Source: an uncultured Candidatus Saccharibacteria bacterium (GTDB taxonomy: Bacteria > Patescibacteriota > Minisyncoccia > UBA6257 > WO2-44-18). From it: a DNA stretch of 38,790 nt. The stretch is from assembly GCA_964361795.1 (NCBI GenBank), contig CAYIBZ010000001.1, forward strand, positions 27,149 through 65,938. Reading direction: 5' to 3'. The position numbers and the translations under genes were made by a program. The notes beneath the pieces were generated by a model that was given only the letters and a program-made list of their open reading frames with translations, searched no databases and was not told the origin of the DNA. Below, piece by piece: positions 5,475 through 27,983 of this stretch (position 1 is its first letter; every line of letters starts with the position of its first letter).

Positions 5475-6374
5475 ATGAACATTATTAAAAACAAATATAT
5501 CTTTCTGACAATTTCCGGATTATTGGTTTTGGCCAGTGTTATTTCTATTGGCTACTTTAATTTAAAGCCTGGCATAGATTTTTCCGGCGGAATCGCTTGG
5601 GAAATTAAATTTTCTGAAAAACCGGCGGCAAAAGGCGAGCTCCTGGATTTTTTCAATAATACGCTTCAGATAACAGACGCGGCAATTATTCCTCAAGAGG
5701 GGAATAATAATTTTTTAATCAGATTTAAAACCATCAGTGAAACCGAACATCAGCAATATTTGAAAAAAATTGAAGAAAAATTTGGGGCTTTAGAAGAGCT
5801 TCAGTTTCAAAATATCGGCCCGTCCGTTGGCGAAGAACTAAGGAAAAAATCGCTTTGGGCTTTTGGATTAGTGCTATTGGCGATTTCCCTTTACGTGGCT
5901 TTCGCGTTTAGAAAAGTGTCGCGCCCGGTTAGTTCTTGGAAATACGGCATCATCACGCTAGTAACTCTATTTCACGACGCTTTAATCCCGGCCGGAATGT
6001 TTGCCATGCTTGGGAAATTATTAAATGCCGAAGTTGATACTAATTTCGTTGTCGCGATTTTAGTCGTAATGGGATTTTCGGTGCACGATACCATTGTTGT
6101 GTTTGACCGCATCCGTGAAAATCTTCGGAATCAAAAAGACGGCCAATCCAGCTTTGAAAATTTGGTCAATCAAAGCGTTAACGAAACAATGTCACGCTCA
6201 ATCAACACTTCTTTAACTCTGGCCCTAACCCTTATTGCCTTATACATCTGGGGTCCGGACACTTTAAAGCTTTTTAATCTAGTCATTCTGGTTGGCACGG
6301 TAGTCGGCACCTATTCTTCCATATTTGTCGCCAGCCCCCTCTTGACTTTATGGCAAAAATCTAAGAAACTATAG
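5475..6374 (+). CDS. secF: Protein translocase subunit SecF
   Basis: N-terminal TM, GIDFSGG motif, C-terminal TM block with GFSVHDTIVVFDRIREN; 4-nt gap after secD. Confidence 0.9.
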   Translation: MNIIKNKYIFLTISGLLVLASVISIGYFNLKPGIDFSGGIAWEIKFSEKPAAKGELLDFFNNTLQITDAAIIPQEGNNNFLIRFKTISETEHQQYLKKIEEKFGALEELQFQNIGPSVGEELRKKSLWAFGLVLLAISLYVAFAFRKVSRPVSSWKYGIITLVTLFHDALIPAGMFAMLGKLLNAEVDTNFVVAILVVMGFSVHDTIVVFDRIRENLRNQKDGQSSFENLVNQSVNETMSRSINTSLTLALTLIALYIWGPDTLKLFNLVILVGTVVGTYSSIFVASPLLTLWQKSKKL

Positions 6375-6433: not shown

Positions 6434-7471
6434 ATGGCAGTGAATTACAACGTAAATCAACTGATTAAAGCGGTCTTGGCTGAAATGCCGGTACGGCATA
6501 AAAAAGTTATTGAAGGCCGTTATAGTCTTGCCGGAGGAGATCCATTAACACTAGCTGAACTAGGCGGCGCTTATAGTTTAACTCGCGAAAGAATTCGCCA
6601 AATTGAAGCTATCGCCCTAAAATCCATCCAGGAAAAAATAGGAAATGTTAATTTAGGGGGATTTGTAAAAGCCGCGGTTAACTATCTGAAATCCGTCGGC
6701 AACTTAAAGCGCGAAGATCTTTTAATTCGCGATTTATCTTTATTAGCGGAAGATAAAGATGAAACCGCCGGCGCCAGCCGGGTTAAGTTCTTACTGGAAG
6801 TTTGTGGAAAGTTTAACTACGCGAAAGAAACCGACAATTATCACGCTTATTGGTATTTAACTCCAGCGGATCAAAAAAAGGCAGTTGGGTTTGTCGTGAA
6901 AGTATTAAACGCGTGGAATTCCAGAAAAAACAACGCTGAATTAGCCGATTTCTACAAAACCTTTACGGCTCTAACAAAGTCTGCCGGAATCACGGAAGCC
7001 GTAGCTCTTAATTATTCTTCCTTATCTAAAGAAATTGCTATGAATTGCTACGGAGATCTTGGCCCTTCCTCTTCCTCAGAAATTAATCCAAAAACTTCTC
7101 GCGATTGGGCTTATTTGGTTTTAAAAAAGGAGAGCCGCCCCATCCACTTTACAGAATTGGCTCAGCTGATCGCCAAATTAAAATCTGGCTCAATTCACGC
7201 GCCGACAGTCCACAACGAATTAATTAAAGACGCAAGATTTGTTTTGGTTGGCAAAGGAACTTACAGTTTGAAAGAATTTGGAATTGTTCCCGGTACGGCT
7301 CGCGAAATTATAAACCATTATATTAAAAAGCACGGCCCGATGAAAGCGAAAGAAGTCGTGCAGTTAGTTCTTAAAGACCGTTTATTTAAAGAAAATACTA
7401 TCTTTATTAATCTGCAGAATAAAAGGCATTTTAAACGTTTGGATGACGGACGTTATACCACTCTGGTATAA
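6434..7471 (+). CDS. Sigma-70 region-4-like HTH fused to a C-terminal HARE-HTH domain
   Basis: The N-terminus (LTLAELGGAYSLTRERIRQIEAIALKSI) looks like sigma70 region 4.2. The C-terminus (DWAYLVLKKESRPIHFTELAQLI ... FVLVGKGTYSLKEFG) looks like the HARE-HTH of RNA polymerase delta/RpoE-type proteins. No sigma region 2 is seen. Confidence 0.6.
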   Translation: MAVNYNVNQLIKAVLAEMPVRHKKVIEGRYSLAGGDPLTLAELGGAYSLTRERIRQIEAIALKSIQEKIGNVNLGGFVKAAVNYLKSVGNLKREDLLIRDLSLLAEDKDETAGASRVKFLLEVCGKFNYAKETDNYHAYWYLTPADQKKAVGFVVKVLNAWNSRKNNAELADFYKTFTALTKSAGITEAVALNYSSLSKEIAMNCYGDLGPSSSSEINPKTSRDWAYLVLKKESRPIHFTELAQLIAKLKSGSIHAPTVHNELIKDARFVLVGKGTYSLKEFGIVPGTAREIINHYIKKHGPMKAKEVVQLVLKDRLFKENTIFINLQNKRHFKRLDDGRYTTLV

Positions 7472-8756: not shown

Positions 8757-10325
8757 ATGTCAGAAATAAATTTTTTTGGACAAACTAATTTCAGGAATCA
8801 GAACACGAAATTCGGCATCAAAGTTGATGACCGTCGGCGCCACATGTACGTCATTGGGAAAACCGGAATGGGGAAAACCACCTTACTGGAAAATATGGTC
8901 ATTTCCGATATTACAAACGGCCATGGAGTCGGAGTGGTGGACCCGCACGGAGATTTCGCGGAAAAAATTCTTGATTTTATTCCCAAGTCAAGAATAAAAG
9001 ATACCGTCTATTTTAGCCCGTCTGATATTGAATTTCCTATTGCTTTTAATCCGCTGGAGCAGGTAAATAACGAATTTCGCCATTTAGTTGCTTCGGGATT
9101 GATGGGCGTTTTCAAAAAAATCTGGCCGGATGTTTGGTCCGCTAGGATGGAATACATACTAAATAACGCCCTTTTAACTCTGCTGGAATTTCCTGATTCC
9201 ACTATTTTAGGCGTAATGCGATTGCTTTCAGATAAAGATTACCGAAAGACTATCGTGGATCAGGTGAAAGATCCGGTTATTAAAGGTTTTTGGGTTAATG
9301 AATTCGCCCGCTATGCCCAAAAGTTTGAAACTGAAGCCACTGCCGCCATTCAAAACAAAATCGGCCAATTTGTGGCTAATCCATTGGTCCGAAACATCCT
9401 TGGACAAACTAAATCCGCGCTTGATCTTCGCAAATCCATGGACGAACAAAAAATTTTGATTTTCAACCTGTCTAAGGGGAAAATCGGGGAGGATAATTCG
9501 GCTCTTTTGGGGTCAATGATTATCACTAAGCTTCAGCTCGCCGCTATGTCGCGCGTTGATCTTCCGGAATCCGAAAGAAAAGATTTTTATCTCTATGTAG
9601 ACGAATTTCAAAATTTCGCCACCGATTCCTTCGCTAATATCTTATCGGAAGCCAGAAAATATCGCCTTTGCCTGATTCTCGCCCACCAATATATCCGCCA
9701 GCTTATTCATGACACGAACACCAAAGTGCGGGACGCCGTATTCGGCAATGTCGGCACTTTAGCCACTTTCCGAGTTGGCGCGGAAGACGCGGAATTTTTG
9801 GAAAAAGAATTTGAACCGGATTTTATGTTAAACGATATTATTAATCTTCCTAAGTACAATATGTACGTAAAATTAATGATTGACGGCATTTCTTCCCGGC
9901 CGTTTTCAGCTAGAACTTTAACGCCGACTGAAAAGCCGAAAGAATCTTTCAAGGACGCGGTTATTGAGCATACTCGTAAAGTTTACGCCACTCCGATTGC
10001 CAAGGTAGAAGCAAAAATTGCGTTGGAATTTTTACCGATAGAACAGCCAGCCCCTTCTTTCACTGATATTCGCCCAAGCGCTCCCCGAAGGCCTAGAATG
10101 CCTGAACGGCAAGATCGCGGCTGGACATATCATCAGGAACGGCCGGAACGATCCTATTCTCCGCCAAAGCCAAAAGAACAGCTAAAACCCCCGGAGGCCT
10201 CTCTTAAAAATCTTACTCCCAAAGAAACACCCGCAACTAAACCGCCCATCCCAAAACCAGAAAAAAAACCAGTCAACATTGACGAACTTAAAGCTGCCAT
10301 CAAAAAATCTTTGGACGGAAAATAA
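8757..10325 (+). CDS. P-loop ATPase of the TraG/TraD/VirD4 coupling-protein (HerA/FtsK-like) type
   Basis: Walker A GKTGMGKTT, Walker B YLYVDEFQNF, RKYRLCLILAHQ motif. The C-terminal ~100 aa is a P/K/E-rich low-complexity tail. Confidence 0.7.
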   Translation: MSEINFFGQTNFRNQNTKFGIKVDDRRRHMYVIGKTGMGKTTLLENMVISDITNGHGVGVVDPHGDFAEKILDFIPKSRIKDTVYFSPSDIEFPIAFNPLEQVNNEFRHLVASGLMGVFKKIWPDVWSARMEYILNNALLTLLEFPDSTILGVMRLLSDKDYRKTIVDQVKDPVIKGFWVNEFARYAQKFETEATAAIQNKIGQFVANPLVRNILGQTKSALDLRKSMDEQKILIFNLSKGKIGEDNSALLGSMIITKLQLAAMSRVDLPESERKDFYLYVDEFQNFATDSFANILSEARKYRLCLILAHQYIRQLIHDTNTKVRDAVFGNVGTLATFRVGAEDAEFLEKEFEPDFMLNDIINLPKYNMYVKLMIDGISSRPFSARTLTPTEKPKESFKDAVIEHTRKVYATPIAKVEAKIALEFLPIEQPAPSFTDIRPSAPRRPRMPERQDRGWTYHQERPERSYSPPKPKEQLKPPEASLKNLTPKETPATKPPIPKPEKKPVNIDELKAAIKKSLDGK

Positions 10326-13055: not shown

Positions 13056-13157
13056 TCAGTGGTCAACCCCGTTAGAGATCCGCCCTCCTGAAAGGAGTGG
13101 CGGCAGCCACCTAGGGGCGGCTTATCTCTAACGGGGTACATCCCACTGATTTTTTTA
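13054..13157 (+). terminator. About 100-nt compound hairpin ending in a T-run (terminator or structured RNA)
   Basis: Outer stem 13054-13062/13143-13151 (9 bp). Second stem ACCCCGTTAGAGAT 13066-13079 / 13124-13137 (14 bp). Inner hairpin 13081-13103. T7 run 13150-13156 abuts the comEC ATG at 13157. Confidence 0.5.
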
Positions 13158-14494
13158 TGAAAATTCATGAGTTATTTTTCTGGGCAGTCTGCTTTTTCTT
13201 GATGGGAGTCTTGATTGCAAGCATCGCGAACGGCTTTAATCAAGCCCTCCTAATAACTTTCTTATCAGTCCTATTAGTTTTATCAATTCTATTCGTCCTA
13301 TCAAAATGGAAATTCTTGCCGCTTTCACGCGTGAAAGCGGCTCTCGGTTTAATGATGTTTGTTGGAGCCGGATATTTTTTTTCTTTTGATTATTTTAAAG
13401 ACGATTCTAAAATTATTTTTGACCAAAAGGTGGAATTAGTCGGTACGATTACTGAAACGGAGCAAAGAATTAATAGCCAGATTTTGAGATTAGCTGATGT
13501 TCAAATCACCACATCGCGATATCCTGAATTTGAATATGGCGACAAGATCAAAGCTATTGGCGTTGTTAAAAAACCGGCGGAAGAATGGATCGGATATTTT
13601 TATAAAGAAGGCATTTCCGGTCTGATGCAATTTCCTAAAATATCGCTTGTGTCCAAAGATAACGGTTCGCCGATTAAAGCCCGTCTTCTTAAAATAAAAT
13701 CATTCCTGGAATTGAGTTTTAAAAAGGTTTTGCCATTTGAGAAGGCAGTGTTTCTTGCGGGGCTGACCCTTGGTTCTACCGCGGAGTTTAGCGGCGAGTT
13801 TAAGGAAAAACTGCGTCTCACTGGCACGACGCATTTAGTAGCTCTTTCGGGATACAACATTTCAATTATTATCCGTTACGTTGGCTACGCGCTTGCTTTG
13901 TGGTGGGTAACTAAAAGATTGAAACTGCCTTTGAGTATTATTGCTGTTGCCGGTTTTGTAATTATGACTGGCGCCGAACCATCCGTTGTTCGCGCCGCGA
14001 TTATGGCCATGATCATTTTACTGGCGGATCAAATTGGCCGGGCGGCTCATATTCCCAATGTAATTGCCGCCGCCGCTTTGGCGATGATTTTGATTAATCC
14101 AAAAATTCTCGCGTTTGACATTGGTTTCCAGCTTTCTTTCATGGCGTTAATCGGAATTATTTATTTGGAACCGTGGCTGCGTAAAAAATTTAAAGCCAAA
14201 AACGAACCGGGGTTTTTGGGATGGCGAACTCATTTTTGGACTACTACTTCCGCCCAATTGGCTGTTTTGCCAATTCTTATTTACCATTTCGGTTTTGTTT
14301 CGCCAGTTTCGATTCTAACCAACGTTCTTTTGCTGGAATTTATCCCGGTTACGATGGGCCTAGGTTTTTTTATTGGTTTTTCAGCCATTGCCAGTTATTG
14401 GTTGTCATGGATAATTGCCTTGCCAGCTCAAGCTTTTCTTGGTTATGAATTATTTATTATTAATGTTTTCTCAAAAATTATAAATCTATTTTAA
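13157..14494 (+). CDS. comEC: ComEC/Rec2 DNA-uptake channel, N-terminal part (DUF4131 + competence domain)
   Basis: TGTTHLVALSGYNISII and EPSVVRAAIMAMIILLADQ competence-domain motifs; many TM helices. Stops before any MBL domain. Confidence 0.85.
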   Translation: MKIHELFFWAVCFFLMGVLIASIANGFNQALLITFLSVLLVLSILFVLSKWKFLPLSRVKAALGLMMFVGAGYFFSFDYFKDDSKIIFDQKVELVGTITETEQRINSQILRLADVQITTSRYPEFEYGDKIKAIGVVKKPAEEWIGYFYKEGISGLMQFPKISLVSKDNGSPIKARLLKIKSFLELSFKKVLPFEKAVFLAGLTLGSTAEFSGEFKEKLRLTGTTHLVALSGYNISIIIRYVGYALALWWVTKRLKLPLSIIAVAGFVIMTGAEPSVVRAAIMAMIILLADQIGRAAHIPNVIAAAALAMILINPKILAFDIGFQLSFMALIGIIYLEPWLRKKFKAKNEPGFLGWRTHFWTTTSAQLAVLPILIYHFGFVSPVSILTNVLLLEFIPVTMGLGFFIGFSAIASYWLSWIIALPAQAFLGYELFIINVFSKIINLF

Positions 14495-14497
14495 GAC

Positions 14498-14535
14498 CAT
14501 ATTCCCACCTCTGACGCGTCAGAGGTGGGAATATG
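14498..14535. repeat. 38-nt perfect palindrome centred on ACGCGT
   Basis: CATATTCCCACCTCTGACG|CGTCAGAGGTGGGAATATG. It lies between the comEC stop (14494) and ATG 14538. Confidence 0.95.
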
Positions 14536-14537
14536 AT

Positions 14538-14972
14538 ATGATAGTCACCATGAATAATATTAATGATAGAGATTTTCAAAATAGACACCGGACGGAATGG
14601 AAAGATTTTTTATGGGACAGGTTTTTGGAAAAATTTTCTGGGATAAAATCTAAAAAACAACAACGAAAAGCTATTGATCTACTTTTTAGTGATTACGAAA
14701 AACAACTAATTACAAAACGTTTGGCGGCACTAATTTTACTGAGAGAGGGGAGGGGGTCTAAAGAAATCAGCGCTATTAAAAAAGCTTTTTTAGGCCCCGG
14801 CCCCTATAAGAGCCAACGATCTTTCAAATCAATGAAAAAAGAAAGTGATTTCACGATTGCGCCGAAAAATCTTTCGTGGCTGGACAGTCTTTTTAATGAT
14901 ATCGATTTATGGGAGATAATTAAAAATCCGCCCCGTCCGCGGGGTACAGGAATAAAAGACTCCTACCTCTGA
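14538..14972 (+). CDS. TrpR/YerC-YecD-like small protein, possibly degenerate
   Basis: AIDLLFSDYEKQLITKRLAALILLREGRGSKEIS resembles the TrpR-like fold of YerC/YecD-type proteins. The expected recognition helix is not evident. Confidence 0.45.
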   Translation: MIVTMNNINDRDFQNRHRTEWKDFLWDRFLEKFSGIKSKKQQRKAIDLLFSDYEKQLITKRLAALILLREGRGSKEISAIKKAFLGPGPYKSQRSFKSMKKESDFTIAPKNLSWLDSLFNDIDLWEIIKNPPRPRGTGIKDSYL

Positions 14973-14990
14973 CGCGTCAGAGGTAGGAGT
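14959..14990. repeat. 32-nt perfect palindrome, cognate of 14498-14535
   Basis: ACTCCTACCTCTGACG|CGTCAGAGGTAGGAGT. It shares the core ACCTCTGACGCGTCAGAGGT with the first copy. The one arm difference (C to T) is mirrored by G to A. It contains the TGA stop at 14970-14972. Confidence 0.95.
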
Positions 14991-14998
14991 TGGTTATT

Positions 14999-15862
14999 AT
15001 GGATAAATTTATTTTAGAAAAAAGATTTTTATATTTGGTGATGGTGGTGATAATGGCGGGAAATGTTTTTGTTTGGCAGGCGATTATTTTTGACGGCGGG
15101 ACAGAGAATTTAGAGCTTTGGTTTTTGGATGTCGGACAAGGGGACAGCCAGCTGATAAATCTTCCAAATAATGTCCAGATTTTGATTGACGGCGGAAAAG
15201 GTCCGAAAGTGTTAAACGAGCTCGCCAAAGTTTTAAAACCAATGGATCGATATATTGATCTAGTGGTTGCTACCCATCCGGATTTTGATCATTTTGGCGG
15301 CCTGATTGATGTTTTGAAGACCTACCAAGTCGGAGCGGTAATTACCAACGGACGAAAGGGAGTCGCGGCGGCGTACGCGGATTTTGAAAAAGTGATTCAA
15401 GAAAACGGCATTCAGGAAATTAATCTGATAGCCGGCGATAAGATTAAGTACGAAGACGCGGTTTTGGATGTTTTGTGGCCGCTTTCGCATGCGAAAGCGG
15501 TTGGCGAGAAAAAAGTTAATGAAACTGGGATTGTGTTGATGTTGGAAAAGGGGCCGCTGCGCGCCCTGTATACGGCAGATATTGGTTTTGAGACGGAGCG
15601 GGAACTTGTTAGAAAATATGATCTTTCCGCGCAGATTTTGAAAGTGGCGCACCATGGATCAAAATACTCAACTTCGCCAGAATTTCTAAAAGAGGTTCAA
15701 CCGAAAATATCGCTTATTGGAGTTGGCAAGAATAATTACGGCCATCCTACCAATCAGGCTTTGAATCGATTAGCGAATATCCGCTCGCAAATTTTCCGAA
15801 CCGATCAAGGCGGCGCCGTAAAAATAATTTTTGACGGAGAAAAATTAAAAATATTTAACTAA
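14999..15862 (+). CDS. ComEC C-terminal metallo-beta-lactamase domain encoded as a separate membrane-anchored protein
   Basis: N-terminal TM, FLDVGQGDSQLI, ATHPDFDHFGG, VAHHGSKYS motifs typical of the ComEC MBL nuclease domain. ATG 14999 is preferred over the listed TTG 14990. Confidence 0.85.
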   Translation: MDKFILEKRFLYLVMVVIMAGNVFVWQAIIFDGGTENLELWFLDVGQGDSQLINLPNNVQILIDGGKGPKVLNELAKVLKPMDRYIDLVVATHPDFDHFGGLIDVLKTYQVGAVITNGRKGVAAAYADFEKVIQENGIQEINLIAGDKIKYEDAVLDVLWPLSHAKAVGEKKVNETGIVLMLEKGPLRALYTADIGFETERELVRKYDLSAQILKVAHHGSKYSTSPEFLKEVQPKISLIGVGKNNYGHPTNQALNRLANIRSQIFRTDQGGAVKIIFDGEKLKIFN

Positions 15863-24901: not shown

Positions 24902-25455
24902 CAAAATATTTTATAACCTTTCTTGTCTTAATAGTGGCCGGCCTTGGCGCCTATTTTATTTTTCATTTAGGATATTATCCAATCGCGATTGTTAACGGGA
25001 AAGTCATTATGGCCAGTTCCTTTAAAAATATGTATGCCAGCGCTTATCAATATTACGCGAAAGCGGTGGGGAATTTGGAACAAATAAACAACGATGATTT
25101 TAAAAAAGAATTAAAGCGCCAAGTCTTAAACCAGCTTATTGAAAGATCGCTTATATCGTCAGCTCTAAAAAATTTAGTTGGCCAAAATTTAGAGAATTTA
25201 GTGAAGGAAAAAATCAGCCTTCCGGCGTTAGATGAGCCGGATTTTCAAGAATCTATCGCTCTGCTTTATGGACTTTCTATAGCGGATTTCAAAACAATGA
25301 TTCTAGAACCTCAAGCTCAAAAAGAAATACTGGAAAAAGAGCTTGTTAATACTAAAACTAATTTCTCAAATTGGTTGACCGAAGTTAGAAAAACCGCTAA
25401 AGTAACTTTGCTAATGGCCGGTTTTAATTGGCAAGACGGGGAATTGCGGGATTAG
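24898..25455 (+). CDS. Membrane-anchored SurA-N-terminal-like chaperone domain protein
   Basis: ATGA overlap with the upstream gene, N-terminal TM, helical region resembling the SurA/PpiD N-terminal domain. No PPIase domain. Confidence 0.4.
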   Translation: MTKYFITFLVLIVAGLGAYFIFHLGYYPIAIVNGKVIMASSFKNMYASAYQYYAKAVGNLEQINNDDFKKELKRQVLNQLIERSLISSALKNLVGQNLENLVKEKISLPALDEPDFQESIALLYGLSIADFKTMILEPQAQKEILEKELVNTKTNFSNWLTEVRKTAKVTLLMAGFNWQDGELRD

Positions 25456-25519
25456 TACAGTGGTAGTACGCAACCTTCCCAAGGTTGAGATGCGAGTTCG
25501 ATTCTCGTATCCCGCTCCA
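25446..25519 (+). tRNA. tRNA-Gly (anticodon CCC), CCA encoded
   Basis: Acceptor GCGGGAT/ATCCCGC, D arm GTAC-AGTGGTA-GTAC, anticodon arm CAACC-TTCCCAA-GGTTG, T arm GCGAG-TTCGATT-CTCGT, discriminator T, CCA. The first 10 nt overlap the preceding CDS. Confidence 0.9.
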
Positions 25520-25668
25520 TTCTATGTCCTCGGCGGATAATGGCCATCCGTAACCTTTGGGTCATATCTCAACCATTTCCAAACCAACAAAAGCCGGCTC
25601 ATAGGCCAACGCTTTAATTCGATCGCGATATTTCGGATTCTCCATTACTTCTTCTAAACATAACGATC

Positions 25669-25699
25669 CGCCAGCTATCGCATAGCTGGCGTTTTTTTT
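25669..25699 (+). terminator. Strong intrinsic terminator
   Basis: CGCCAGCTAT-CGC-ATAGCTGGCG (10-bp stem) followed by T8. Confidence 0.8.
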
Positions 25700-25706
25700 C
25701 ACGGTG

Positions 25707-25728
25707 GCACTATTACGCGTAATAGTGC
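25707..25728. repeat. 22-nt perfect palindrome centred on ACGCGT
   Basis: GCACTATTACG|CGTAATAGTGC followed by TTTT. Confidence 0.95.
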
Positions 25729-25782
25729 TTTTACATGTAAAAGCAAGCGGTTGTGGCGGCTTTGGTCGTCAATGCTAAATCA

Positions 25783-25809
25783 AAAACTCCGACGTCGTGT
25801 CGGAGTTTT
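25783..25809. terminator. Bidirectional terminator, probably ending the minus-strand two-gene operon
   Basis: AAAACTCCGAC-GTCGT-GTCGGAGTTTT. The minus strand reads hairpin then TTTTTGATTT. Confidence 0.7.
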
Positions 25810-25832
25810 ATAGTTTTCTGGGGTTTCTTTAA

Positions 25833-25870
25833 CCATCCAATTACCAAGCTATAGCGTGGTAATTGGATGG
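25833..25870. repeat. 14-bp-stem hairpin
   Basis: CCATCCAATTACCA-10 nt-TGGTAATTGGATGG; 31 nt downstream of the stop at 25902. Confidence 0.9.
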
Positions 25871-25901
25871 ATCAAAATAAAAAACAAAATCGCCTTAGCG
25901 T

Positions 25902-26264
25902 TTAGCTTCGGCGATCTGATAGAAATTCCATCAGTATTTTCTCGTTTTCGGTGAAGTCGGGATTGCTGTTTGCCCCCCTCTTCAGAAGCAACTGCTGAAT
26001 TGCCAACCTATCCCCCAAATCCCGTAATACGCCATAAATAACTGAACGCAGTACCTTTAGGTTAATCCAGCATTGGCTGTCTAGACAAGGAGCACCCATG
26101 ATTTTCAAGTTGTAAGGAAGATTCATCGCATTGCAGTAGCCCATAAATTCGTATCCATTTTTATACAAATTATAGAATCTTCGCAGAAGCTCTTTTTGCT
26201 CCTTGGTGAGTTTCTTCAGATTCAGCTTTTCGCCTTGTAGGGTGGTGTAGACGGCATTTTTCAT
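25902..26264 (-). CDS. Hypothetical protein (120 aa), island gene P4
   Basis: ATG 26264 is preceded by AAGGAG at 7-nt spacing (the listed TTG 26282 is less likely). It closely follows P3 (14-nt gap). No family recognised. Confidence 0.6.
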   Translation of the reverse strand: MKNAVYTTLQGEKLNLKKLTKEQKELLRRFYNLYKNGYEFMGYCNAMNLPYNLKIMGAPCLDSQCWINLKVLRSVIYGVLRDLGDRLAIQQLLLKRGANSNPDFTENEKILMEFLSDRRS

Positions 26265-26278
26265 TGGCCTCTCCTTTT

Positions 26279-26509
26279 TCAAAAATCATTTCCGCCAAAA
26301 TCCCCAGGCGGATCGCCGGCGTGGCCATGGCCGCAAGTACCGTCAGCGCATTTGCTCATTTCTTTTTGAAAATCATCGTATCTCTTTTGCGCTTCTACGC
26401 ACCTTCCGCATTGAGCAACATGGCTTAAAAATTCTTCGCTTTTGTCTGTCAGAAAAGCTCGAAACCGACCGCCATTCCATTCGTCACAAAATCCCCAATG
26501 ATCCGGCAT
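26279..26509 (-). CDS. Small Cys/His-rich protein with zinc anti-sigma (zf-HC2, H-x3-C-x2-C)-like motif, island gene P3
   Basis: AGGAGG SD 6 nt before ATG 26509. C8 ... H30-VAQ-C34-GR-C37 spacing resembles RsrA-type ZAS domains. An extra CADGTCGHGH cluster lies near the C-terminus. Confidence 0.55.
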   Translation of the reverse strand: MPDHWGFCDEWNGGRFRAFLTDKSEEFLSHVAQCGRCVEAQKRYDDFQKEMSKCADGTCGHGHAGDPPGDFGGNDF

Positions 26510-26704
26510 GATGTTCCTCCTTTGCCTGCCGAAGCTTTATGCGTAGGCGGGCTTTTCAGTGCTGACGAAAAACTAACATGGATATAAGAAGAATGCAAAA
26601 AACCTTATTTTCTTTTTCATTTTCATTCTTAAGTTCTCAAGAATATAGGAATAAACGGAATTAAAAAACATACAACTGGTCAATGTCGGCTTGCTTTAAT
26701 AAGT

Positions 26705-26741
26705 CAAAGCACTGCTATCACGCGTGATAGCAGTGCTTTTT
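26705..26741. repeat. 34-nt perfect palindrome centred on ACGCGT, plus T-run; cognate of 25707-25728
   Basis: AAAGCACTGCTATCACG|CGTGATAGCAGTGCTTT followed by TTT. It shares GCACT...ACGCGT...AGTGC with the other copy. Confidence 0.95.
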
Positions 26742-26795
26742 TCGTGTATAGAAGTGAACTATTCAACTATTGCATCTCGCGCATAATTCGCCATT

Positions 26796-26831
26796 CGTAA
26801 AAATAAAAATCCCCGAGACTTTCGTCTCGGG
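26796..26831 (-). terminator. Strong intrinsic terminator of island gene P2
   Basis: Minus strand reads CCCCGAGAC-GAAA-GTCTCGGGG followed by ATTTTTATTTTT. Confidence 0.8.
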
Positions 26832-26892
26832 GTGCCGCATGGGGCTAGATTCTTCCTCAAACCTGCCACGGTTAGCTGGGCCGTGGGTTTTT

Positions 26893-27201
26893 TCACTCGC
26901 CGATCATCTTCACGATCGATGAATCGGAGAGCCACGGACGGGCCTGAAGGTAGAGATGGCCGACATGGAGCAGACGATCCGCGCCGCCATCGTCGTACTC
27001 CTCCTGATCCCATTGGAACTCGATCCGCTCGTTCGTGCTGGGACAGTTGAGCGTCAGACCTTTCGGCCCGATGCTGGAGATGCCGGTGTCGCCGTTGAGA
27101 TTGTCCACGAGCTCGACGAGCGCTGCTTCTGCCGATCGGAAGTGGGTCCGCCGTCTGTGCGACTCACCTTCCGCCTTCTCGAACACCGTGATCTGGATCA
27201 T
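26893..27201 (-). CDS. Hypothetical protein (102 aa) in a high-GC patch, island gene P2
   Basis: ATG 27201 is preceded by GGGAGG at 6-nt spacing. Third codon positions are strongly G/C-biased in this frame (atc cag atc acg gtg ttc gag aag gcg ...). All other overlapping ORFs lack an RBS. Confidence 0.6.
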   Translation of the reverse strand: MIQITVFEKAEGESHRRRTHFRSAEAALVELVDNLNGDTGISSIGPKGLTLNCPSTNERIEFQWDQEEYDDGGADRLLHVGHLYLQARPWLSDSSIVKMIGE

Positions 27202-27270
27202 GAAATCCTCCCTTTTGAAAAAGAACCTTGTTCTTAGCCCACAACACAATGTTATGAGCTAGGAAAAGGT

Positions 27271-27295
27271 GGGGTGAACCTCGCTGGTTCACCCC
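27271..27295. other. GC-rich 10-bp hairpin within the predicted 5' leader of P2
   Basis: GGGGTGAACC-TCGCT-GGTTCACCCC. On the minus strand it is followed by ACCTTTTCC. Confidence 0.8.
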
Positions 27296-27380
27296 GTGGA
27301 TCCTACTACTTGCTCTTGTCGAGACACTTGCGGCAGGTTTCGAGAATCAGGGTTTCCTCATGCCGTCGTTGTATGCTCCT

Positions 27381-27410
27381 ATTATACACCATAACAACCA
27401 CTTTTGTCAA
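27381..27410 (-). promoter_or_regulatory. Consensus sigma70 promoter, minus strand (TTGACA-18 nt-TATAAT)
   Basis: Reverse complement has TTGACA (27410-27405), an 18-nt spacer and TATAAT (27386-27381), about 170 nt upstream of the P2 ATG. Confidence 0.7.
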
Positions 27411-27420
27411 GTACAAATAA

Positions 27421-27449
27421 TTGACAAGTTTAGTAGTATATGCTAGAAT
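27421..27449 (+). promoter_or_regulatory. Consensus sigma70 promoter, plus strand (TTGACA-17 nt-TAGAAT)
   Basis: -35 at 27421-27426, -10 at 27444-27449. The two -35 boxes form the inverted repeat TTGTCAA-10 nt-TTGACAA. Confidence 0.7.
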
Positions 27450-27479
27450 ATCCGCAGGTCATATTTGAAAGGAGGCGCT

Positions 27480-27851
27480 ATGACGCCAGAGAAAACGGAT
27501 CGGTTTATTGGCCTGAATGAATGGGCTCTTGAGAAAGTTACGCTTCCAGGCGCTAAAACTTCTCTAACTAGATCGATTTACGCTGATACCCAAGGAGACA
27601 AGCACCCTCTTTTCCGATATGAGTTGCCAGACGGAACAATCTGCGAGGAAGATCTATATACCTACCAGTCCTTGGATGCCGACAGAAAAATATACTTTCT
27701 GGCTCTAAGAGACGGTGTGGGTAACTGGATCACAGAATCGCTCTGGAGCGATAAGGATATTCAGGAAGCGTGCGAAATTTCTCTGGAACTCCTCAAAGAA
27801 GAATCCATGGAAGTTGAAGAAGCAATAGAGGTAGCAGTGATTGAGGGCTAA
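27480..27851 (+). CDS. Hypothetical acidic protein (123 aa), island gene P1
   Basis: ATG 27480 is preceded by AAAGGAGG at 6-nt spacing, with its own promoter and terminator. No family recognised. Confidence 0.6.
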   Translation: MTPEKTDRFIGLNEWALEKVTLPGAKTSLTRSIYADTQGDKHPLFRYELPDGTICEEDLYTYQSLDADRKIYFLALRDGVGNWITESLWSDKDIQEACEISLELLKEESMEVEEAIEVAVIEG

Positions 27852-27866
27852 GGCCCTCCTTTTTTT
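27843..27866 (+). terminator. Intrinsic terminator of P1
   Basis: GAGGGC-TAAG-GCCCTC followed by CTTTTTTT. It overlaps the TAA stop. Confidence 0.75.
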
Positions 27867-27893
27867 GAAAAAATTGGCGAAATAAGGTAAACT
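27865..27893 (+). promoter_or_regulatory. Putative promoter for tRNA-Thr and prfB (TTGAAA-17 nt-TAAACT)
   Basis: -35 at 27865-27870, -10 at 27888-27893. The tRNA 5' end at 27903 is 9 nt after the -10. Confidence 0.45.
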
Positions 27894-27902
27894 AACTGCA
27901 TT

Positions 27903-27974
27903 GCCGGAGTAGCTCAATGGCAGAGCAATGCTTTCGTAAAGCAGAGGTTGCGAGTTCGACTCTCGCCTCCGGCT
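27903..27974 (+). tRNA. tRNA-Thr (anticodon CGU), no CCA encoded
   Basis: Acceptor GCCGGAG/CTCCGGC, D arm GCTC-AATGGCA-GAGC, anticodon loop TTCGTAA, T arm GCGAG-TTCGACT-CTCGC, discriminator T. Confidence 0.9.
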
Positions 27975-27983
27975 CTAAAACTT

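Follow-up and report, generated by a model that had tools for sequence, protein, structure and literature searches.

Anatomy, expression signals and composition of the islet

We analysed a stretch of 38,790 nucleotides (the window) from an uncultured Candidatus Saccharibacteria bacterium (GenBank assembly GCA_964361795.1, contig CAYIBZ010000001.1) and focused on a 2,383 bp islet that separates the genes for tRNA-Gly(CCC) and tRNA-Thr(CGU) and contains four small open reading frames (ORFs), P1 to P4. An earlier note on this DNA had taken the four genes together as one undescribed system. Our results argue against that proposal and indicate that the islet is probably a hotspot holding at least three independently acquired, self-expressing accessory modules, with the four proteins not forming one system. 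The tRNA genes and the four ORFs, at the lengths the note had given, were recovered with ARAGORN, Rfam and an ORF list. The first base of the islet (25520) is the base directly after the 3' end of tRNA-Gly. The features of the locus are listed below.

25446-25519, plus strand: tRNA-Gly(CCC), left boundary of the hotspot (ARAGORN; Rfam, 68.6 bits)
25520-25900, no strand: hairpin-dense non-coding spacer with five perfect stem-loops (folding z = -5.7 on the plus and -7.5 on the minus strand versus shuffles)
25669-25691, plus strand: hairpin followed by T8 (hairpin list)
25705-25750, no strand: left arm of an inverted repeat, made of palindrome A (25707-25728, centre ACGCGT) and palindrome B (25726-25745, centre ACATGT)
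25783-25809, no strand: bidirectional terminator-like hairpin (hairpin list)
25889-25915, minus strand: P4 terminator, an imperfect hairpin (ATCGCC.../...GGCGAT) overlapping the stop codon and followed by a T-run (read from the sequence)
25902-26264, minus strand: P4, 120 aa, basic, pI 9.4, second gene of the P3-P4 operon
26279-26509, minus strand: P3, 76 aa, acidic, Cys/His-rich, first gene of the P3-P4 operon
26586-26665, minus strand: region upstream of the P3-P4 operon, likely its promoter region, 77% identical to the related locus L093 (blastn, alignment)
26689-26739, no strand: right arm of the inverted repeat, made of palindrome B' (26692-26709) and the 34-nt perfect palindrome A' (26706-26739, centre ACGCGT)
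26811-26832, minus strand: P2 terminator, CCCCGAGAC-GAAA-GTCTCGGGG followed by a T-run (signal scan)
26893-27201, minus strand: P2, 102 aa, acidic, 60% GC (ORF list; composition)
27202-27376, minus strand: structured leader of P2, about 170 nt (folding z = -4.9)
27381-27449, both strands: divergent back-to-back promoters of P2 and P1 (promoter scan)
27468-27475, plus strand: Shine-Dalgarno (SD) sequence of P1, AAAGGAGG (signal scan)
27480-27851, plus strand: P1, 123 aa, very acidic, pI 4.3 (ORF list; no homologue found)
27843-27858, plus strand: P1 terminator hairpin and T-run (signal scan)
27903-27975, plus strand: tRNA-Thr(CGU), right boundary, with the gene for release factor 2 (RF2, prfB) directly after it (ARAGORN, Rfam)

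Both flanks of the islet consist of housekeeping genes, with an amino-acid permease, LepA, DivIC and a SurA-like protein on the left and RF2, a PD-(D/E)XK protein, FtsE and FtsX on the right. The islet was tiled at 100% identity by separate assemblies (replicate samples of groundwater well H51 and Logan assemblies). One contig (L096) contained the region upstream of P3, P4, tRNA-Gly, SurA and DivIC and ran into LepA, a second (L002) contained P2-P1 and a third (L001) P2-P1-RF2. As three independent assemblies tile the islet and span both junctions, a mis-join or chimera was ruled out and the region is genuine. The exact sequences of P1-P4 were also present in a public protein collection, so public gene callers had chosen identical starts, and each protein was a singleton at 90% identity.

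The promoter and terminator scan placed the four genes in three separate transcription units in two orientations, with P2 and P1 diverging from back-to-back promoters, as had been described before. The minus-strand promoter of P2 (TTGACA-18-TATAAT, 27410..27381) matched the consensus at 12 of 12 positions, and the plus-strand promoter of P1 (TTGACA-17-TAGAAT, 27421-27449) at 11 of 12 with an upstream TG. The description of these promoters as near-consensus stood for P1 and P2 but not for P3-P4, whose candidate promoter (TTGCAT-17-TAGTTT), just downstream of 26586-26665, does not come close to the consensus. Terminators with a hairpin and a T-run were present after P1, P2 and, with an imperfect hairpin, P4, in agreement with the earlier note. 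SD matches of 5-7 nt preceded all four genes (AAGGAGG, GGAGG, AAGGAGG and AAGGAG), compared to matches of at least 5 nt in 7 and of 6 nt in just 1 of the 37 core ORFs, a comparison that is approximate as core starts were taken from the longest ORF; the contrast between strong SDs in the islet and rare SDs in the core genes was thus again evident. Many core genes without an SD carry a TATAAT-like box no more than about 10-15 nt from the start codon (for example upstream of 7480, 8757, 24644 and 35379), suggesting that leaderless or very short-leader mRNAs are the default in this genome. Within the ~170 nt leader of P2, two strong hairpins (27271-27295 and 27229-27259) lie between the perfect consensus promoter and the SD. 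The leader had no Rfam family match and may be of the attenuator type.

Composition across the islet was mosaic, as previously noted, with a GC content of 0.59 in 26801-27200 versus about 0.42 elsewhere. This patch coincides with P2 (0.60 GC). The GC content at the three codon positions of P2 was 0.62/0.40/0.78 and its third-position value was far from the 0.42 +/- 0.05 of core genes; P2 is thus of foreign composition and bears the signature expected of a genuine coding frame that came from a high-GC donor. Codon log-odds scores of P4 and P2 fell below those of every core gene, and those of P1 and P3 were inside the core range. For each of P1-P4 the annotated frame was the best of the six. P1, P2 and P3 are acidic and P4 is basic.

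Searches of P1-P4 against Pfam, NCBIfam, PHROGs, PADLOC and PDB sequences gave no meaningful match, consistent with the earlier statement that none of the four proteins was recognisable. The sole match in PADLOC-DB 2.0 was that of P3 to CARF9 at chance level (E = 0.034, 10.9 bits). A single-query search with P2 of a protein index of 5.8 billion clusters returned only P2 itself. Peptide patterns of P1 found no relative in JGI metagenome contigs or IMG/VR, and patterns of P2, P3 and the P4 family found none in IMG/VR. A single-sequence AlphaFold2 model of P1 was unusable (pLDDT 46.5). No integrase or transposase was detected in the 30 of 37 core ORFs of the window scanned with Pfam or in the ORFs of the islet, and when both tRNAs were aligned locally to the islet, which would reveal a tRNA-derived attachment (att) repeat, the top scores did not exceed those of shuffles. 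The absence of integrase, transposase and att duplication noted earlier was therefore seen again.

P3 lies upstream of P4 in the same orientation with a gap of 14 nt, and each gene has its own SD. P3 carries the motif H30-x3-C34-x2-C37, with C8 22 residues upstream, and in addition C54-x4-C59. The first of these had been described as resembling ZAS, the motif of zinc-binding anti-sigma factors. The motif is present, but P3 gave no match to zf-HC2 (PF13490) or any other Pfam family at E <= 1 and no sigma factor adjoins it. P3 could equally be a plain four-cysteine (CxxC...Cx4C) zinc ribbon.

A variable tRNA hotspot and the wider P4 family

The best relatives of the RF2 protein (65-74% identity) were in metagenome-assembled genomes of Patescibacteria, several labelled Candidatus Harrisonbacteria or Paceibacterota, and 80 related loci were fetched. 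The order tRNA-Gly(CCC) to tRNA-Thr(CGU) upstream of prfB was found in 25 of the 80. The gap between the two tRNAs measured 2-63 bp at seven of these loci, 159-761 bp at eight and 1.3-2.7 kb at ten. Cargo in the longer gaps was unrelated (ORFs named by eye) and included a VIT1-like membrane protein, a large VanW-like ORF, aminotransferase IV with DagK and PAP2, Fic, HNH and a small HTH protein. Using tblastn, no homologue of P1-P4 was detected in the roughly 80 loci of relatives. As gap size and cargo vary and the relatives lack homologues of P1-P4, the Gly/Thr tRNA spacer ahead of prfB is a site of repeated insertion, a hotspot, in Parcubacteria-type Patescibacteria, with lineage-specific content in this genome. 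This comparison substantiates the suggestion of foreign accessory DNA at a tRNA locus. A literature search on tRNA hotspots or islands in Patescibacteria returned nothing specific. The islet is a clear example of a defined tRNA-tRNA hotspot in the ultra-small genomes of Patescibacteria, one that gathers self-expressing foreign small genes with no recombinase visible.

By homology search, only one of the four islet genes, P4, belongs to a wider protein family, which is uncharacterised. An exhaustive phmmer search over 1.84 billion representatives (cut-off E <= 1e-3) gave a family of 28 clusters at the 50% identity level, with most members 107-123 aa long, distributed over Patescibacteria and DPANN archaea. 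One member is annotated as Candidatus Woesearchaeota and has archaeal ribosomal, Spt4 and exosome genes as neighbours. P4 matched the family profile over its full length, including the motifs YxTLxGExLxL...QKxLL, YWI...IYxVLxDLxDRLGIxQG and DFxxNEKxLxxFL. The ratio of nonsynonymous to synonymous substitution (dN/dS) against five homologues was 0.12-0.28 where measurable; P4 is a real gene whose protein is under purifying selection. The AlphaFold2 model of P4, built from a 17-sequence alignment, was confident (pLDDT 94.8, pTM 0.88) and predicted an N-terminal beta-hairpin followed by six helices. Foldseek returned nothing for this model in the PDB (best E = 2.8, TM <= 0.28) or in BFVD (best E = 2.1), and the predicted fold of the family is apparently new. 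Matches of P4 to ankyrin and TBD were rejected as spurious; they traced to a local LLLKRGANSN string or a coiled-coil stretch that the family does not conserve.

The only invariant residue of the P4 family is Asp82. No catalytic site is evident in P4, as no Ser, Tyr or His is conserved. Three family members carry a C-terminal HTH_17 domain (PF12728, excisionase/MerR-type), and P4 itself lacks an HTH. Unlike HTH_17 proteins, the core domain of P4 matches no family or solved fold; the fusions nevertheless link the family to DNA binding and possibly to the control of mobile elements. From its basic charge and the fusion of the core domain to this type of HTH in three members, P4 may tentatively be a small DNA- or partner-binding regulatory protein, a proposal we judge possible rather than likely. 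Just upstream of the SD of P4-family genes we also observed a short motif, TAGTAATTTGATAA, which is identical in locus L083 (5985-5998) and locus L103 (about 30 nt upstream of 1081) and occurs as TAGCAATTTGA in locus L100 (upstream of 6001). This shared motif may be a common -10 region or an operator. With a confident model, no structural relative in PDB or BFVD, purifying selection, a tendency to lie next to tRNA genes and a distribution over Patescibacteria and DPANN, the P4 family offers a tractable target for episymbiont biology.

About ten further genomic contexts of P4 were read, and the homologues were single genes amid housekeeping genes (L083, L085, L088, L091, L094, L095, L099, L100 and L103). 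Their neighbours included rplK/nusG and gatB, HisRS and RadA, BipA (in a complete 837-kb genome), RtcA/RtcB and DHFR/ThyA. In a tblastn search of P1, P2 and P3 against these loci, no homologue was found in any. There is therefore no conserved linkage for P4, the sole protein with detectable homologues, and a lack of such linkage was one of the outcomes that the earlier note had named as refuting its proposal. The P4 homologue of L094 shares its start (ATGA) with the end of a 70-aa CxxC ORF, that of L085 is overlapped at its end by an ORF of 119 aa, and in L083, L095 and L100 there is no immediate partner ORF. A homology of P3 to the 70-aa ORF of L094 was considered and rejected on comparison. 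Between rplK and the P4 homologue of L083 lies a long inverted repeat (5647-5848), with roughly 105 nt between two arms of roughly 60 nt each; a structured RNA and a repeat element are both possible readings of it.

The nearest relative of the P3-P4 cassette was L093, from the 0.1-um fraction of the same well, H51. L093 showed 85% DNA identity over a segment that begins roughly 25 nt ahead of P4 and takes in its terminator, in addition to the similarity further upstream of the operon. Over the P3 segment L093 could not be aligned and carried an unrelated 60-aa membrane ORF instead. The conserved unit therefore consists of promoter, P4 and terminator, and the first gene of the operon is variable. 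The stem of the P4 terminator is kept in the P4 homologues of L093, L083 and L095. The P4 homologue of L093 has an in-frame TAG at 708-710 where the window has TTG (Leu), which is either a pseudogene or a read error (contig coverage 2.3x).

Several P4 homologues have a tRNA gene as their neighbour, encoded on the other strand and arranged tail-to-tail. In L095 a P4 homologue of 61% identity lies within the same Thr/Gly tRNA gap, together with a 40-nt partial 3' copy of tRNA-Gly that extends from the anticodon loop to CCA. The copy is separated from the full tRNA-Gly(CCC) by 36 nt (the pair is at 1774-1813 and 1850-1907) and from the P4 homologue by 33 nt, and it resembles a scar left by integration at this hotspot in a relative. 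In L103 the P4 homologue lies between tRNA-Leu(UAG) and tRNA-Glu(UUC), and tRNA genes were found about 0.8 kb and 2.6 kb from the homologue in L091 and L099, respectively. In total, 3-4 of 9-10 independent contexts were within 1 kb of a tRNA, as compared to about 7% expected for a random gene, a rough estimate from a small sample.

An inverted repeat and a hairpin-dense spacer

Two features of the islet had been missed in the earlier note, an inverted repeat of about 45 nt and the 380-bp hairpin-dense spacer. The inverted repeat brackets P3-P4, with about 85% identity between 25705-25750 and 26689-26739. The left arm is a perfect 22-nt palindrome followed by an 18-nt palindrome, and the right arm has the same elements mirrored. 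No other copy of the repeat arm was found in the window, in IMG/VR and JGI metagenome contigs (both by exact-pattern scan) or in the fetched loci, no direct target-site duplication was visible at its flanks, and the flanks of the L093 cassette differ from those in the window.

Perfect hairpins with stems of at least 9 bp were concentrated in the islet, which held 8 of the 18 in the window (3.4 per kb versus 0.27 per kb elsewhere). The spacer at 25520-25900 contained no credible ORF and no Rfam family, and a relaxed Rfam search gave only sub-threshold chance matches (PhrS, NsiR1, RsmZ). A 46-aa ORF within it (25562-25702, minus strand) was not accepted as a gene, since its N-terminus is encoded by a terminator hairpin read in reverse complement, it had no family match and no gene caller supported it. 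The spacer could consist of stacked leftovers of terminators or of att sites, or be an uncharacterised RNA.

Perfect palindromes centred on ACGCGT are a trait of this genome: of the ten ACGCGT sites in the window, five centre perfect palindromes of 22-38 nt. The loci of relatives (1.27 Mb) contained one further ACGCGT palindrome, L083 5600-5623, which serves rplK as its terminator and directly precedes the P4 homologue. Some ACGCGT palindromes are therefore ordinary terminators, and this tempers a transposon reading of the bracket around P3-P4.

A second arrangement of palindromes was observed in the window at ComEC. This gene is apparently split, with the Competence domain in one ORF (13157-14494) and the metallo-beta-lactamase part in another (14990-15862). 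A 144-aa TrpR/YerC-like gene (14538-14972) lies between the halves and is flanked by near-identical, perfect palindromes, CCTCTGACGCGTCAGAGG (14498-14535 and 14959-14990), each of which gives the SD for the next ORF. The 144-aa gene may be an inserted palindrome-bounded cassette. A second pair of palindromes, related to each other, CCGCTTTC-ACGCGT/GCATGC-GAAAGCGG (13318-13341 and 15479-15500), lies inside the ComEC halves, symmetric around the CCTCTGACGCGTCAGAGG pair. Paired ACGCGT-centred palindromes around small genes are a lead worth following in this genome.

Independent modules as the probable explanation, and the alternatives

The arrangement of the islet is best explained if at least three modules were gained independently in the tRNA spacer in the manner of phage morons, which are autonomous promoter-ORF-terminator units inserted between core genes, known from lambdoid phage genomics. 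The units of the islet resemble morons in having their own strong promoter, SD and terminator, a composition set apart and small proteins unrelated to the neighbouring genes. Unlike morons, they lie in a bacterial chromosome amid housekeeping genes, with no phage gene nearby and no relative in phage collections; a tblastn search of concatenated P1-P4 and a blastn search of the islet DNA against phage and plasmid collections found nothing. Each module would bring its own promoter, strong ribosome-binding site and terminator and so could be expressed in any surroundings. The first would be the P3-P4 operon within its palindromic inverted repeat, with promoter, P4 and terminator as the core, an exchangeable slot before P4 and P3 as an optional, putatively zinc-binding partner. 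The second would be P2, a high-GC ORFan with a long structured leader, and the third P1, a very acidic ORFan. The anatomy, the variability of the hotspot, the missing linkage, the family, selection and model of P4 and the foreign composition of P2 are shown by the data, whereas the order of acquisition and any function of P1-P4 are inferred.

Several points weigh against independent acquisition. The uniformly strong SDs in an SD-poor genome could reflect a common origin of the four genes, or all of the islet could have been transferred as a single block, with its mosaic structure inherited from a donor not yet sampled. Nor does the islet contain a mobility gene or att site to explain how modules entered. 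The deep search for P1 and P3 is incomplete: a concatenated P1+P2+P3+P4 query of the 5.8-billion-cluster index missed the query proteins themselves and the 70% relative of P4 and was therefore treated as invalid rather than negative, and a hidden linkage involving P1 or P3 is possible. The role suggested for P4 draws on its charge and on domain fusions.

An alternative that we consider unlikely takes the islet for what is left, after decay, of one or several tRNA-targeting integrative elements that lost integrase and att; in another form of it, P3-P4 would be a non-autonomous element with inverted repeats at its ends, mobilised in trans. The islet shares with tRNA genomic islands its start at the exact 3' end of a tRNA, its lineage specificity, partly atypical composition and uncharacterised accessory genes, a site that varies across 25 relatives and the partial tRNA-Gly copy retained beside the full gene and a P4 homologue in L095. 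The inverted repeat around P3-P4 and the similar ACGCGT palindrome pair around the 144-aa gene in ComEC also fit a decayed element, and the hairpin-rich spacer could be its stacked leftovers. In contrast to tRNA islands, the 2.4 kb islet has no integrase, att direct repeat or mobility genes and is bounded by a second intact tRNA. By the criteria for insertion sequences (IS) and miniature inverted-repeat transposable elements (MITEs), terminal inverted repeats are present around P3-P4 but no extra copies, transposase or target duplication were found. Palindrome-bounded cassettes such as integron attC and REP/MITE-like elements are comparable in that hairpin inverted repeats flank a short cassette and a second palindrome-flanked small gene occurs in the window. 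They differ in that no other copies and no target duplication were found here and the cassettes carry their own promoters; no integron integrase was seen in the 30 ORFs scanned, and no R'/R'' cores (GTTRRRY) were visible by eye in the islet hairpins. The unique repeat arm, the different flanks in L093 and the rplK terminator of L083 also speak against a decayed element.

We regard as distinctly doubtful the narrower proposal that P3-P4 alone are a two-gene regulatory or toxin-antitoxin-like pair, in which P3, as a small acidic zinc-binding protein, would act on the basic P4 by neutralising or modulating it, as in ZAS anti-sigma/sigma or antitoxin/toxin pairs. The short gap, shared orientation, separate SDs and opposite charges favour a pair, and the compact operon, in which a small acidic protein is encoded ahead of a larger basic one, resembles those of type II toxin-antitoxin systems; the ORFs overlapping the P4 homologues of L094 and L085 point the same way. 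However, most P4 homologues are monocistronic, which makes P4 hard to reconcile with a toxin, the partner ORFs are unrelated to one another, and P3-P4 have no toxin-antitoxin or PADLOC match. The lack of an evident catalytic site, with Asp82 as the sole invariant residue, also argues against this proposal. The H-x3-C-x2-C motif with its upstream Cys is shared with ZAS anti-sigma factors of the RsrA type, but P3 is only 76 aa and lacks both a zf-HC2 match and an adjoining ECF sigma factor. P4 has no sigma-70 domains, and its predicted fold differs from that of sigma factors.

More speculative, and in our view improbable, is the idea that P4-family genes with a conserved promoter, terminator and palindromic brackets would be the core of a new, integrase-free small cassette that colonises tRNA-adjacent spacers in Patescibacteria and DPANN, with an exchangeable passenger slot (P3 here) and the palindrome-flanked 144-aa ComEC gene as a second example.

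It is very improbable that the region is an assembly artefact, or that it is foreign DNA, non-coding or pseudogenised, in which part of the ORFs (P1 and P2 above all) are spurious. P1, P2 and P3 are singletons without comparative support, the codon score of P2 is below that of every core gene and the model of P1 is poor, but the annotated frames are the best of six, the codon positions of P2 show a genuine high-GC coding pattern, each ORF has a correctly spaced SD, promoter and terminator, and the three assemblies exclude a mis-join.

We give hardly any credence to P1-P4 together as one undescribed defence, toxin-antitoxin or host-interaction system at a tRNA locus, as in the earlier note: the strong SDs and clean transcription signals of all four genes, their unrecognisable products (three acidic, one basic) and a tRNA hotspot as a typical site for such cargo are outweighed by P4 homologues that never co-occur with P1-P3, the replacement of P3 in L093, the separate composition of P2 and its lack of relatives, the three units in two orientations and the absence of any family signal in Pfam, NCBIfam or PADLOC. 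As the single-system reading fails, the islet is unsuited to pursuit as a new defence or toxin-antitoxin module. It is a further example of tRNA-associated accessory islets, with the P4 family and the palindrome-flanked cassettes as the parts worth follow-up. Elsewhere in the window, an ATPase resembling coupling proteins of the TrwB/TraG type (8757-10325) and a protein of 345 aa whose sole domain is sigma-70 region 4 (6434-7471) were observed amid housekeeping genes.

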